The translations under genes were made by a program, and so were the position numbers. A stretch of DNA of 64,000 nucleotides. It comes from Candidatus Xenobia bacterium. GTDB taxonomy: Bacteria > Vulcanimicrobiota > CADAWZ01. The notes beneath the pieces were generated by a model. That model was given only the letters and a program-made list of their open reading frames with translations. It made no database searches and was not told where the DNA came from. Below, one piece after another: positions 12,139-15,861 of the stretch (positions are counted from its first letter, which is position 1; every line of letters begins with the position of its first letter). The stretch spans positions 64,477 to 128,476 of the forward strand of contig JAVBNT010000001.1 of NCBI GenBank assembly GCA_031551355.1, written 5' to 3'.

Positions 12139-12168
12139 TTGAACGGAGTAGGATATTGTTGGTATACT
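12139..12168 (+). promoter_or_regulatory. Sigma70-type promoter for small peptide gene P1 (TTGAAC-N18-TGgTATACT, extended -10).
   Basis: Hexamers read directly. Located about 75 nt upstream of the ATG at 12246. RBS AAGGAGAAAA lies 6 nt before the ATG. Confidence 0.4.
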
Positions 12169-12245
12169 TAAATCAAGAAATATAGTGGATTCGTAAAAAA
12201 TATCGGCTCCATATAAACAAAAAATTAATTAAGGAGAAAACAAAT

Positions 12246-12326
12246 ATGTTCTGGAATGAAAATGAAACCGTAAATACATGTGACATCCATGGTGTATATA
12301 TGACACCTCCTCCGGAAGGTTGCTAG
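12246..12326 (+). CDS. Small 26-aa Cys-containing peptide P1 (MFWNENETVNTCDIHGVYMTPPPEGC). Paralog of two peptides at 15.5-15.9 kb.
   Basis: ATG with a strong SD, own promoter and an intrinsic terminator directly downstream. Two paralogs are present elsewhere with conserved residues. Below the 60-aa ORF-track cutoff. Confidence 0.5.
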   Translation: MFWNENETVNTCDIHGVYMTPPPEGC

Positions 12327-12345
12327 TTTTATAAACATAAAAAAA

Positions 12346-12366
12346 GGGCCGGTTTTACCGGCCTTT
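12346..12366 (+). terminator. Rho-independent terminator after P1.
   Basis: GGGCCGG-tttta-CCGGCC stem followed by a T-run. Confidence 0.55.
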
Positions 12367-12457
12367 TTTTATGTTTTTTTTTTCCGGTATTTATGATAGA
12401 ATAATAATATCTTTTATTTTCTGTGCTATTTTTATTACTTAATCCGGAGGTTTTTTT

Positions 12458-13501
12458 ATGAGCCGTAATATGAAGATGCTATTTTTGTTTTTCATTCTCT
12501 TTTGCTTTCCGGTTTTTTTAACCGGATGTAATTCTTCTGACAGTTATAACGACAATAGATACTATGGATATGAAGAGGAAGACCGCTACGTTGCCTATAT
12601 AGCAGTTGCCGATTGGAATAACGGCGGCAAGCTTTTGTTTATTGACAGGCAGACGCTTGAATATTCTTTTACCAGAGATGCTAACGGCAGTCCTGAATCC
12701 GTTGCTTACTTCAGGCCAAACCGCTATTTTTATGTTGGCGGCGGTAAATATATTACCTCGATTTACGGGTCAAAAAATACATCAAATACACAGAATCTGC
12801 TTACGGAAAGTGCGTCTTTGCTGGCAGCCAATAATTATTATCTGTTTGCGTCGTTTGATCGCAACGAAGTAAAATATTACATTCCCGATACAAACGGGGC
12901 TCTTTATACGGATGCAGTTGTCGGAATTTCCGGCAAGGGGGCTCAAGTAGCATGCAGCCCTGATAATTATGAAATATGTGTCAGCGGTACCGAAGCAAGC
13001 GGTAATGACCTTTCGATTTATTCCGGAGACCGTTTCGGTTTTCTCGGTATAATTGCTGATGCCGGCAATGCCGGGGTTACTTTCTCAAGCGGCAGAATAT
13101 ATGCCGTGGATACTAATTTAAAAAGACTGAATCTTGTTTTTGCCGATTCTGCAAAAGTCGACAAATTTGTCGATCTGGCGGCTTTGGGAGCCGTTAATCC
13201 ATGGGGCGTTGCTTATGCCGGCAGTAAAATTTATGTAACTGATTGTGTGGCCTCGGGAAAAGTTTTTGTTTTTGACTATAACCTTAATTATCTTAAGACG
13301 ATATCTGACGTAGGCTCTTTCCCTAAATACATCAGCGGCGATCCGGAAAGAAATTATGCATATGTATCTAACCAGGGCGACGGTTTTGGTAACAATGCCT
13401 CACTTGCCGTTATCGATCCCGCTAGTGACACAAAACTGAAAACTATCGGCCTTGCCGGTCATAAACCGATGGGTATTGCCGTAATGCCCTGGAACAGGTA
13501 G
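12458..13501 (+). CDS. Lipoprotein with YVTN-type beta-propeller repeats.
   Basis: Signal peptide plus lipobox LTGC. Repeated YVTD/YVSNQGDG-type motifs. Confidence 0.55.
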   Translation: MSRNMKMLFLFFILFCFPVFLTGCNSSDSYNDNRYYGYEEEDRYVAYIAVADWNNGGKLLFIDRQTLEYSFTRDANGSPESVAYFRPNRYFYVGGGKYITSIYGSKNTSNTQNLLTESASLLAANNYYLFASFDRNEVKYYIPDTNGALYTDAVVGISGKGAQVACSPDNYEICVSGTEASGNDLSIYSGDRFGFLGIIADAGNAGVTFSSGRIYAVDTNLKRLNLVFADSAKVDKFVDLAALGAVNPWGVAYAGSKIYVTDCVASGKVFVFDYNLNYLKTISDVGSFPKYISGDPERNYAYVSNQGDGFGNNASLAVIDPASDTKLKTIGLAGHKPMGIAVMPWNR

Positions 13502-13785
13502 CAGTTTAGATCAACTTTAGTAAATATCAGCATTGGGCAATTATAACAGGACAGGGGAGGACTCATGCTTCTCCTGTTTTTCATTTGATAAATAACGTGC
13601 CCTGTGATAACATGTTTTTGTGGAATACAGTAATATCAAATACGTATCAATTCAATTGTAATCACGCCATTTAGTAAAGTCTGTAAGAATTAAGAACTAT
13701 CTAATATTTCTTTAAATCTTGCTCTGAAAAGATTCGCCGTATTTTACTTTTGAGATACGGATGCATCGGATCGTTTTAAATTGGC

Positions 13786-14853
13786 CTAACTATAATTTTT
13801 TACTTTATATTGTTTTAAAAAATTGTTGCTTTTGTATCGCTTAAACTGTTCTGCCAATTCAATTCCTGCTCCCGGCTTGGACAATTCTATTTTTTCGTTT
13901 AATCCGCTTTGACTTGTAAAGTATAAATCCGAATAAAGCATAAGCGGCAGTTGACTGTTATTATTAAATCTTCTATCCGGAGCTCCAAGTTTGTTAACAT
14001 GCCGCCATGTGTAGTCTATAATGGTGCCGTCTTCGGGAATCATTCCATTTTCGATGATTTTTTGATTGCTTTGAATAATATCCAAGTTTAAATAGGTTAG
14101 GCCGCCAACTATATTATTATCATAAATCAGGATTCTTTCCGGAAAAAAGTAAAGTGTCCGTTTGCCTGCAGGTATTGATGGCGGCAAAATATTAGTTTCA
14201 ATATCCGGCGGAGCTTTATATTTTATATTTATAGGTGTTCTTGTAATTAAACTGCCGACTCCGGAGTGGCGTTTAGGGTCATTTACCCTGGTTTCGTCGG
14301 AAATGTGCCATTGAGAACGGCAGCTTATTATTTGCTCAAAACTGTTGTAAAATTTTTGAATTTTTTGTTCCGTCTCTTTTTTAATATCATAAAAGATAAT
14401 GGTCGTTTTTCTTTTTTTATCAATAAATAGATAAATTAGAAAGGCGGCGGCAATGGCGATAAAAATTCCTGTTTTAGGAATTAAAATTGCCAATAATGCT
14501 AATGGCCATAATCCGCGTGTTTTTCTTTTCTGATTTATTTCATTAATAATATCCCTTAATGATGAATGAACAACATAAGCTGTATTTGTATTTTTAATTT
14601 CCGTATATAATAATTGTTCTTCTTGAGAATTTTGAGTTGCTTGTCTGATGTTGTTTTTTTCTTCTTTTTCCAATGCAGTCCGGTAATAAATGCCATTCTC
14701 TTCAACACGGATATAATTTCCAAGCGGACCGCAGCGAATGTGAAGTCCTTCTCTGCCTATAGATGCGCCTGTGCCTGATTCTAAAAGGCTAAATTTGATG
14801 CCATTAAAGCTGATTGATTTTCCGGAATAAAACCCCATACTATTACCCCCCAA
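13786..14853 (-). CDS. Hypothetical protein with one central TM helix. Track start is TTG. An internal ATG at about 14838 is a more likely start.
   Basis: 355-aa ORF. Hydrophobic segment LWPLALLAILIPKTGIFIAIAAAFLIYLFI. No recognisable motif. Confidence 0.4.
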   Translation of the reverse strand: MGGNSMGFYSGKSISFNGIKFSLLESGTGASIGREGLHIRCGPLGNYIRVEENGIYYRTALEKEEKNNIRQATQNSQEEQLLYTEIKNTNTAYVVHSSLRDIINEINQKRKTRGLWPLALLAILIPKTGIFIAIAAAFLIYLFIDKKRKTTIIFYDIKKETEQKIQKFYNSFEQIISCRSQWHISDETRVNDPKRHSGVGSLITRTPINIKYKAPPDIETNILPPSIPAGKRTLYFFPERILIYDNNIVGGLTYLNLDIIQSNQKIIENGMIPEDGTIIDYTWRHVNKLGAPDRRFNNNSQLPLMLYSDLYFTSQSGLNEKIELSKPGAGIELAEQFKRYKSNNFLKQYKVKNYS

Positions 14854-14890
14854 ATTATTTCCATAATCCGCATTTTTTTAGGTAAATAGT

Positions 14891-15066
14891 CTAGAGCAAT
14901 TTGCATTCTATATGTCACTAAAATTTTTGGAAAAGACGGCGTAGCCGTCATCGCTAGTCTCCGCCTTCGCGGGGATAAACTCCGCTGTGGCGAACCAGTA
15001 TTTTATGGATTGACCGATGTCGGTTGTTTGGCAAGTGTATGACAGTTCAGTTGCAAACTGCTCTAG
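14891..15066. mobile_element. MITE-like ~176-bp element with ~15-bp terminal inverted repeats (ctagagcaatttgca ... tgcaaactgctctag), copy A.
   Basis: Near-identical copy at 27601-27785. Internal hairpins gacggcgtagccgtc and ccccgccttcgcgggg. No coding capacity. Confidence 0.5.
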
Positions 15067-15420
15067 CTTGGTTTAATTAAGTGAGGAATTACAAAATCTT
15101 TTTGTGGATAAAAAGCAATTATTTATATAAAATAGCCGGATATTTGGCAGAAGCAGGCCAATCGGGTGAGTTGTTGTATATTGCTATTTTATTGCTTTTT
15201 CAATTGAGAGGGGAACATAGTAACTTGATGGCAGGAGTATAAATAAGGTTGTTTTTTAGAACTTAATATAATTTATTTATCTAAAAGACTGATTGTTTTT
15301 ATTTATCTTTTTCGGATAAATCAGAGTTGATTTTTTATGAAGGGCAAAAAATTCTTTTATTACTAAACCCGGGATTGGTATCCTTATAATATATTATATC
15401 ATATTCAGGTTGATGATGAT

Positions 15421-15484
15421 ACTAATTATAGAGACAACTAAAAAAGACTGATTTCTCAGTCCTTTTAGTTGTCTCTATAATTAG
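15421..15484 (-). terminator. Very long perfect palindrome (30-bp arms) acting as a terminator just downstream of peptide P2.
   Basis: ctaattatagagacaactaaaaaagactga-tttc-tcagtccttttagttgtctctataattag read directly. Confidence 0.5.
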
Positions 15485-15567
15485 CAGCCGCCGCCATCCG
15501 GTGGAGGACATACATACATACCGTGGATATCACAGGTATTTACTGTTTCAGTTTCATTCCAGAACAT
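15481..15567 (-). CDS. Small 28-aa peptide P2 (MFWNETETVNTCDIHGMYVCPPPDGGGC).
   Basis: Own promoter (TTGATA-N17-TATACT), SD AAGGAGATAAAT, terminator. Paralog of P1 and P3. Confidence 0.5.
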   Translation of the reverse strand: MFWNETETVNTCDIHGMYVCPPPDGGGC

Positions 15568-15774
15568 CTATTTATCTCCTTTCACAAAAACTAATGTTTC
15601 TTCATTTACAGTATAACTTTTTTAGTGATTTGTATCAATAAAAAAAATGTTAAAAGATTGTTAAGAGAACGCCATCCACATACCGAGCTTATATATTAAT
15701 TAATGGATAATCATTTTATGGGATAGAAAGAAATAAAAAAAGAGCCGGAATTTCAGCTCTTTTATTTATCTTAA

Positions 15775-15861
15775 TTAGCAGCTGCCGCCATCCGGTGGAG
15801 GACATACATACATACCGTGAATATCACAAGTATTTACTGTTTCAGTTTCATTCCAGAACAT
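15775..15861 (-). CDS. Small 28-aa peptide P3 (MFWNETETVNTCDIHGMYVCPPPDGGSC).
   Basis: Own promoter (TTGCGT-N17-TATACT), SD, and downstream hairpin. Nucleotide sequence near-identical to P2. Confidence 0.5.
   Translation of the reverse strand: MFWNETETVNTCDIHGMYVCPPPDGGSC

Follow-up and report, generated by a model that had tools for sequence, protein, structure and literature searches.

The 64,000-nt stretch of DNA analysed here, referred to below as the window (contig JAVBNT010000001.1 of Candidatus Xenobia bacterium, assembly GCA_031551355.1; GC content 41.6%), contains three very small peptide genes, which are designated P1, P2, and P3. An earlier note on this stretch had described three peptide open reading frames (ORFs), and direct translation returned identical sequences at the same positions: P1 spans positions 12246-12326 on the forward strand and encodes a 26-aa peptide (MFWNENETVNTCDIHGVYMTPPPEGC), and P2 (15481-15567) and P3 (15775-15861) lie on the reverse strand and encode peptides of 28 aa each (MFWNETETVNTCDIHGMYVCPPPDGGGC and MFWNETETVNTCDIHGMYVCPPPDGGSC, respectively). 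P2 and P3 are tandem duplicates with a period of 294 bp; the repeat that includes the coding sequence is 96% identical between them, and the 100 nt upstream are 79% identical. Each of these two genes has a stop codon directly 5' of its ATG. No fourth copy of the peptide was detected in the window by a six-frame motif scan and two hidden Markov model (HMM) scans.

Each of the three genes has its own set of expression signals. The Shine-Dalgarno sequence AAGGAGA, previously described as strong, was confirmed before each of the three ATGs (12231-12237 on the forward strand for P1; 15575-15581 and 15869-15875 on the reverse strand for P2 and P3), with the GGAG core located 8-9 nt from the start codon in all three genes (9 nt for P1 and 8 nt for P2). 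Likewise, the proposed downstream hairpin terminators were found at P1, P2, and P3. The intrinsic terminator of P1 (12333-12381, forward strand) consists of an A-tract, a GGGCCGG stem, and a T-tract, forms an inverted repeat with 15-nt perfect arms, and looks bidirectional. The hairpin of P2 (15422-15484, reverse strand) is built from 22-nt perfect arms that surround an inner GACTGA/TCAGTC stem with a T-run behind it; its 5' arm overlaps the P2 stop codon, and its minimum free energy is -59.1 kcal/mol (z = -6.9). For P3, an intrinsic terminator (15738-15763, reverse strand) comprises a 10-bp stem followed by the T-run TTTATTTC. Terminator-like sites are enriched in this region, with 11 observed compared to 3.3 expected.

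The promoters had been called near-consensus, which is appropriate for the -10 boxes, as these read TATACT in all three genes and carry a TG extension in P1. However, the description is overstated as a whole, because the -35 boxes agree with the consensus at just 3/6 (P3, TTGCGT), 4/6 (P1, TTGAAC), or 5/6 (P2, TTGATA) positions, and the number of promoter-like matches in this AT-rich stretch (19) shows no enrichment over that expected from shuffled sequence (16.2). The candidate promoters are located at 12139-12168 for P1 (forward strand; 18-nt spacer, TG-n-TATACT, 9/12 matches plus the TG extension), at 15610-15638 for P2 (reverse strand; 17-nt spacer, 10/12 matches), and at 15903-15931 for P3 (reverse strand; 17-nt spacer), the last of which, with its weak -35 box, is below the threshold of the promoter scan. 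It is mainly the conserved position of these putative promoters ahead of all copies that argues for them.

The absence of the peptides from the ORF track, which had been pointed out before, extends to the called genes on matching contigs, which skip the peptides, and P1-P3 are also absent from a collection of 15 billion proteins; such an omission from gene calls is expected for genes shorter than 90 nt. Conservation and synteny, which the earlier note had suggested checking, were found in a distant metagenome-assembled genome (MAG), and three more homologues were found among 1.84 billion representative proteins. The former was identified by a degenerate DNA scan of Joint Genome Institute (JGI) metagenomes, in which one of four matches represents a true homologue (MTLE01008270.1 of GCA_003575165.1, loci L003 and L015; MFWNENEMINTCDIHGIYMPPPPDDGGC), while the others (L002, L004, and L005) were rejected as chance matches inside other reading frames. 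The peptide gene of MTLE01008270.1 has its own GGAG site, a perfect TATAAT box, GAAGGAGA, and a terminator with a 16-bp stem. The three homologues from the protein collection were retrieved with a profile of the three window peptides, are full-length (29-30 aa), and have E-values of 3e-8 to 8e-7: P0123 (MFWNENENLNINEIHSIYVCPPPDRDGGC), P0124 (MEFWNLTEEVTTEEIHGMYVIPPDDGGGC), and P0125 (MFWRENEMIETEDVHAMYVIPPDGGGCGAN). An MFS_3/MFS_1 transporter gene lies 57 nt downstream of P0125, and apart from this gene, the contig of P0125 contains unknown ORFs alone.

In MTLE01008270.1, the peptide gene is located directly downstream of a lone OppB/NikB-like permease gene that is divergent from aroE-aroC, and the gene order in the window is aroC-aroE, permease, two serpins, P3, P2. 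Between both genomes, AroC is 48%, AroE 35%, the permease 75%, and the peptide approximately 80% identical, and, judging from these values, the two organisms are distantly related. Further searches extended the family no further. The degenerate DNA scan for WNExExxNTCD had no match in the GTDB species genomes, this motif being too narrow for homologues of the P0123, P0124, and P0125 type. No relatives came out of a search for syntenic genomes that was based on AroC, and neither a concatenated 170-aa query nor two viral-contig scans yielded a match; the tblastn matches to plasmids and phages were all due to chance. Furthermore, contigs with homologues of the permease (L006-L016) and of the serpins (L017 and L018) were walked, and a peptide HMM scan of these approximately 170 kb revealed no further peptide copies.

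Codon-level comparison of P1, P2/P3, and the MTLE01008270.1 homologue yielded dN/dS values of 0.05-0.14. The proportion of synonymous differences (pS) was 0.53-0.77 in every comparison except that of the recent duplicates P2 and P3 (pS of 0.12), so that synonymous sites are near saturation, and over the first 24 codons, the variable alignment columns are distributed as 4/3/15 over codon positions 1/2/3. Moreover, the coding regions of non-tandem copies are 74-81% identical over the first 72 nt compared to approximately 60% in the flanks, a value that is roughly the background for AT-rich DNA. Judged by this pattern, the selected product is shown to be the peptide and not an RNA, chance ORFs are effectively excluded, and P1-P3 very probably represent genuine coding genes under selection that form a new family. 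The earlier description of the three as small protein-coding genes, separately expressed, and as mutual paralogues is upheld, with clear selection at the codon level. The same applies to the statement that they are not fragments of a larger disrupted gene, since every homologue elsewhere is a complete ORF of 26-30 aa with its own start and stop, and a stop codon stands just before the ATG of P2 and P3.

The promoter regions of the three genes share a further element that was not part of the earlier note and is new in this analysis: a direct repeat, TTAAYA-N5-KTAACA, located 8-9 nt upstream of the -35 box. For P1, it reads TTAATA-N5-GTAACA (12114-12130, forward strand, 8 nt upstream of the -35 box) and represents a putative regulator-binding site; for P2 (15648-15664) and P3 (15941-15957), both on the reverse strand and 9 nt upstream of the -35 box, it reads TTAACA-N5-TTAACA. 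The 64 kb contain 4 exact matches, and if up to one mismatch is permitted, 10 matches are found compared to 2.24 expected, a number that was reached in 0 of 100 shuffles. Outside the motif, the upstream region of P1 cannot be aligned with those of P2 and P3 (58-62% identity), so that the P1 motif is not a residue of duplication, and the presence of the repeat in all three promoters points to co-regulation. Among 18 fetched loci, exact motif matches were confined to those carrying a peptide. In MTLE01008270.1, the site that matches exactly is palindromic, with arms of 11 nt (ATTCTTGTTAA-N7-TTAACAAGAAT); it contains the TTAACA repeat motif and is situated between the peptide terminator and the gene for an EF-hand-like protein (L015 3672-3700, corresponding to L003 2713-2741). 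The peptide promoter itself carries the half-site TTTACA, which matches at 5/6 positions and is likewise 9 nt from the -35 box.

An 11-bp period of hexamer repeats is characteristic of sites bound by response regulators. At promoters controlled by OmpR/PhoB-type response regulators, direct repeats of this kind adjoin or replace the -35 box. The window genes have two TTAACA-like repeats of 11-bp period 8-9 nt upstream of the -35 box, whereas the Bacillus subtilis PHO-box, TT(A/T/C)ACA with 11-bp periodicity, comprises four repeats (PMC11870197). The match to the PHO-box unit in sequence and period, with two repeats instead of four, should be regarded as a resemblance only. Of the 10 ORFs closest to the peptides, 9 were included in Pfam and NCBIfam scans, as were 30 more across the window, with those left out including 1-394, 4739-7546, 39126-42230, and 63124-63690, and no OmpR-family regulator was recognised among the window ORFs scanned. 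The fourth exact copy of the repeat (28501-28517, reverse strand) is located 22 nt upstream of a TATAAT box, ahead of a gene for a Gly-zipper membrane protein (27852-28433, reverse strand), which may belong to the same regulon as the peptide genes. This gene has a paralogue (28664-29248, reverse strand); both proteins have a hydrophilic N-terminal half and a Gly/Ala-rich membrane tail without family match, and their genes adjoin a pair (25290-27526, forward strand) that encodes a histidine kinase with a HAMP domain and, at 26798-27526, a response regulator of the NarL type.

With the homologues included, the family comprises seven known members, and their alignment can be summarised by the consensus M-F-W-N-E-x-E-x-[VIL]-x-T-x-[DE]-[IV]-H-G-[MIV]-Y-[VM]-x-P-P-(P)-[DE]-(x)-G-G-C. 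Invariant in all seven are F2, W3, E7, H15, Y18, P21, and P22, together with a single Cys that is the last residue or close to it, and conservative exchanges are seen at positions 13 (Asp/Glu), 14 (Ile/Val), and 19 (Val/Met). The tail Cys is preceded by an acidic residue and 1-3 Gly (one Ser in P3). The internal Cys residues are not conserved, with Cys12 replaced by Asn or Glu and Cys20 by Thr, Pro, or Ile in other members. This does not agree with the earlier suggestion that the C-terminal Cys is paired with an internal one in a disulfide or thioether: as only the tail Cys is invariant and the internal ones are replaced in other members, a fixed disulfide or thioether ring is unlikely and would not be the core of the function. 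Several further likenesses were dropped since they rely on the non-conserved Cys12 or Thr, namely those to the autoinducing peptide AIP-I of AgrD (TCDF compared to TCDI), the nickel hook of Ni-containing superoxide dismutase, the NxxC motif, lasso peptides, and lanthipeptides. The peptides matched nothing in Pfam (E up to 10), NCBIfam (E up to 1), or the PDB (phmmer, E up to 10); no Rfam family reached the gathering score in the window, where just sub-threshold hairpin matches were obtained; Foldseek found no fold match in the PDB for the peptide models; and nothing relevant to the peptide sequence motifs was found in the literature. Thus, the family appears to be previously undescribed and to lack described relatives in Pfam, NCBIfam, Rfam, and the PDB.

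The peptides are small (approximately 3 kDa) and acidic, with a net charge of -4.4 to -7.4, 0-1 Lys/Arg, and a grand average of hydropathy (GRAVY) of -0.28 to -0.69. These properties bear directly on the candidate roles of bacteriocin-like peptide and small toxin that had been put forward in the earlier note. While a bacteriocin-like antimicrobial peptide or small membrane toxin would agree with the small size, with several copies under their own promoters, and with an upstream motif shared with two Gly-zipper membrane proteins, peptides charged at -4 to -7, in which Lys/Arg are nearly absent and GRAVY is negative, and which have no leader, signal peptide, or amphipathic or transmembrane segment, fit neither role well. 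Furthermore, no immunity or ABC/C39 gene is found nearby, and an antisense RNA or antitoxin arrangement is not apparent. Phenol-soluble modulins and delta-toxin are likewise peptides of 20-30 aa without signal peptide that are encoded in multiple copies with strong expression signals; however, they are neutral or cationic amphipathic helices, whereas the family is acidic, has Pro/Gly breaks and negative GRAVY, and is not accompanied by a Pmt-type ABC exporter. The hydrophobic or amphipathic cationic sequence of type I toxins and membrane-active small peptides is also not matched in GRAVY or charge. We consider a toxin or bacteriocin function most improbable.

At every locus, the peptide gene is followed by another gene on the same strand. 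Downstream of P1 lies the gene for a lipoprotein with weak NHL/YVTN beta-propeller repeat matches and an LTGC lipobox, and downstream of P2, 600 nt away, that for a 355-aa membrane protein; the peptide of MTLE01008270.1 is followed by a 338-aa EF-hand-like secreted protein. The genes adjoining the peptides encode mostly envelope or secreted proteins that are mutually unrelated. In the P1 terminator, the 5' arm (12336-12355) shows 80% complementarity to a segment around the ribosome-binding site and start of the lipoprotein gene (12441-12460), and on read-through it could pair with this ribosome-binding site; this complementarity is probably a chance likeness of CCGG...TTTTTTTATG strings.

Such an arrangement invites comparison with cis-acting leader or arrest peptides, in which an elongation factor P (EF-P)-dependent stall at PP(P/D)(D/E) would control hairpin termination and, hence, the downstream gene. 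PPP, PPD, and PPE are strong EF-P-dependent stall motifs, every member of the family retains PPP or PPD, each window copy is followed by a terminator, and the downstream gene is always on the same strand. TnaC, MgtP, and the thr leader are comparable in their length of approximately 25 codons, in a conserved Trp combined with a Pro-rich motif, and in the downstream terminator. However, the acidic residues and the G-G-C end past the PP are conserved in the family, which a stall site does not require, and the terminator stems begin 11-20 nt past the stop codon, so that they would stay paired with a ribosome positioned on PPP or on the stop codon. Folding returned the terminator only, with no predicted antiterminator or other alternative pairing, and Rfam leader matches were far under the thresholds. 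Moreover, P3 is followed by P2 and not by a regulated gene, and the genes that follow the peptides differ at every locus (lipoprotein, EF-hand-like protein, MFS transporter, and the distant membrane protein), unlike those expected for an attenuation leader. Control in cis is, therefore, very unlikely to account for the family.

The wider neighbourhood agrees with the earlier note in its two secreted serpins, an orphan OppB-like permease, a putative beta-propeller lipoprotein, and an element resembling a miniature inverted-repeat transposable element (MITE). The tandem serpin genes (15985-17169 and 17278-18465, reverse strand) are located between the permease gene and P3 and encode proteins with signal peptides that are 79.5% identical; no serpin is present at the corresponding site of the relative in MTLE01008270.1 (L015). 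The lone OppB/NikB-like permease gene (18602-19576, reverse strand) has no OppA, OppC, OppD, or OppF neighbours in any lineage examined (the window and L006-L016). Across the fetched contigs, the permease is 71-85% identical to the window copy, compared to only approximately 48% for AroC among the three contigs carrying it; the permease gene adjoins a HIT hydrolase gene in most contigs and aroE-aroC in the window, L015, and L006. One contig (L016) has the permease followed by a serpin as in the window (serpin at 1578-1907) and ends before any peptide. The named proteins nearest to the window permease and serpin come from MAGs labelled Eremiobacteraeota, Vulcanimicrobiota, and Armatimonadetes, and the source of the window is probably an uncultivated lineage close to these. 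The MITE-like element of approximately 175 bp occurs twice (14893-15066 and 27602-27785), has the terminal inverted repeats CTAGAGCA...TGCTCTAG, and its copies are 86% identical over 184 nt; one is situated between P2 and the gene for the 355-aa membrane protein, the other between the genes for the NarL-type regulator and a Gly-zipper protein.

Besides these genes, the window encodes TrkAH, a GH3 glycosidase, TrmN, AroE/C/K/Q, TruB, and a Nuo-like oxidoreductase, and FolD as well as NifS/NifU were assigned from the precomputed annotation of a matching contig (L001). Two tandem TrkH paralogues of 488 aa each (1767-3233 and 3230-4696, forward strand) follow the TrkA gene. A cas6 gene (32877-33671) is present, and Tandem Repeats Finder detected no CRISPR array in the whole window; it is followed by genes for HsdM (34746-37244) and HsdS (37172-39094) of a type I restriction-modification system, an ORF of 1,034 aa (39126-42230), and a gene for a YgjP-like metallopeptidase (42227-42937). 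Furthermore, the region from 52611 to 58711 (forward strand) encodes eight tandem paralogues of 221-259 aa, each with a zinc ribbon (CxxC...CxxC) at the N-terminus, hydrophobic stretches resembling transmembrane segments, and a C-terminal domain; their pairwise identity is approximately 24-64%, and the two that were scanned had no Pfam match.

P1-P3 and their homologues could be unmodified intracellular microproteins, in which the aromatic residues F2, W3, and Y18 together with the PP core would fold or dock in order to regulate or assist a larger protein encoded elsewhere, with the thiol tail serving as ligand or redox handle. Consistent with this, purifying selection acts along the entire peptide, starting with the residues that directly follow Met, a secretion signal, leader, or maturase was not found, the composition is hydrophilic and acidic, and one AlphaFold model is a beta-hairpin formed by residues 9-20. 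However, this run (pLDDT 62.5) is in conflict with a second one that is mostly coil (pLDDT 77.7). Regulatory microproteins are usually encoded with their target, whereas no conserved partner gene adjoins any peptide copy; the genes are monocistronic and multi-copy, and one homologue, P0125, is located just upstream of the MFS transporter gene. We regard an intracellular microprotein as the main alternative, somewhat less probable than the role favoured below.

Among characterized systems, the family is most like stand-alone precursor peptides (PqqA, MftA, and dispersed ProcA) or regulator-controlled pheromone genes, a resemblance by analogy, as it departs from the defining features of each. 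The cofactor precursors PqqA and MftA (mycofactocin) have 20-30 aa and no signal peptide, and contain few invariant reactive residues (acidic and Tyr); these peptides are consumed and not recycled. Their genes have a hairpin right after them and sometimes extra copies elsewhere in the genome. However, the family here matches neither NCBIfam nor Pfam models, its invariant reactive group is the tail Cys, and the E-x3-Y of PqqA and the C-terminal GVY of MftA are absent, the corresponding features being [DE]13-x4-Y18 and a C-terminal G-G-C. Moreover, genes resembling pqqB-E or mftB/C were not recognised among the window ORFs scanned, where the sole radical S-adenosylmethionine (SAM) protein is of the AmmeMemoRadiSam type (TIGR04337); encoded at 24268-25275, 8 kb from the peptides, it was rejected as a candidate maturase. 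The prochlorosin precursors (ProcA) are similar in that several paralogous precursor-like genes each come with expression signals, variability is concentrated in the C-terminal part while the N-terminal part is conserved, and the Cys is likely reactive. They differ in that the family has no recognisable leader family, its variable part is preceded by only approximately 16 residues, the data examined revealed no maturase, and the Ser/Thr partners required for lanthionines are not conserved. With ComC, PlnA, and AgrD, products of autoinduced pheromone and bacteriocin genes in Gram-positive three-component systems, it shares small peptide genes in co-regulated sets, direct repeats of the response-regulator type just upstream of the -35 box, and peptide permeases nearby. 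However, neither a double-glycine leader nor an AgrB-type processing context nor a C39 ABC exporter is found here: the GG motif is 1-2 residues from the C-terminus, so that no mature peptide would remain. In addition, no kinase/regulator pair is located closer than 10 kb, the repeats have a period of 11 bp instead of approximately 21 bp, the peptides are acidic, and the host is probably diderm.

Taking these comparisons together with the sequence evidence, we tentatively favour a peptide that acts in trans, either after export or as a precursor. The three genes would form a co-regulated set under one DNA-binding regulator and give rise to abundant short monocistronic transcripts, and the peptide would act in trans, outside the cell or at its envelope, either as an exported signal or metal-binding peptide or as the stoichiometrically consumed precursor or scaffold of a modified product. 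The thiol of the Gly-Gly-Cys end would be the reactive group, the conserved N-terminal two-thirds would be the recognition part, and modifying enzymes and exporter would be encoded elsewhere. In favour of such an extracytoplasmic or consumable role are the presence of three copies, the reactive nature of the invariant residues, the transporter gene beside P0125, and neighbouring genes with a relation to the envelope. The theme of envelope and export recurs at the individual loci, as the copies are found among signal-peptide serpins, a lipoprotein, an EF-hand-like secreted protein, and a peptide/nickel-type permease, with the MFS transporter at P0125. A more specific version, which we regard as speculative and rather unlikely, is that these thiol-tailed mini-peptides are an unknown type of ribosomal natural-product or cofactor precursor built on Gly-Gly-Cys, or a low-molecular-weight thiol or metal carrier, with unlinked maturation and transport and a response-regulator operator, in a lineage related to Eremiobacterota.

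Several observations weigh against a trans-acting, exported or precursor peptide. The peptides have no signal peptide, double-glycine leader, or hydrophobic segment, and no recognisable split into leader and core, and the two structure models are in conflict. Two roles named in the earlier note, that of an unmodified signalling peptide and that of a precursor of a ribosomally synthesised and post-translationally modified peptide (RiPP), for which a search for distant maturases had been recommended, may or may not apply. No RiPP maturase, RiPP recognition element (RRE) protein, leader peptidase, peptide exporter (C39/ABC), or RiPP-type radical SAM protein was detected among the window ORFs scanned, including 9 of the 10 nearest to the peptides, and no RiPP-related genes were recognised among the four ORFs scanned downstream of the peptide in L015. 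Co-regulation is affected as well, as the sharing of the motif by P2 and P3 is partly due to their duplication; the resemblance to response-regulator sites suggests that a single putative regulator activates all of the peptide genes jointly. Furthermore, the linkage of permease and peptide may be inherited synteny, as a comparison with the peptide-free contig L006 indicates, on which a permease 85% identical to that of the window is followed by no peptide in the remaining 2.4 kb. Finally, the DNA level is covered for only four of the seven known members (P1, P2, P3, and L003/L015).

Because genes of fewer than 30 codons are skipped by standard callers, this family is almost invisible in databases: the 1.84 billion representative proteins include just three members, which are 29-30 aa long. 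As small-protein families that await characterisation are numerous, the finding would be a moderate surprise to a specialist. Nevertheless, a single invariant thiol on a flexible tail, the presence of three copies, and a shared operator make these peptides a tractable target, and their identity of approximately 80% between two genomes whose AroC proteins share just 48% speaks for a role that is both specific and important in an uncultivated lineage about which little is known.

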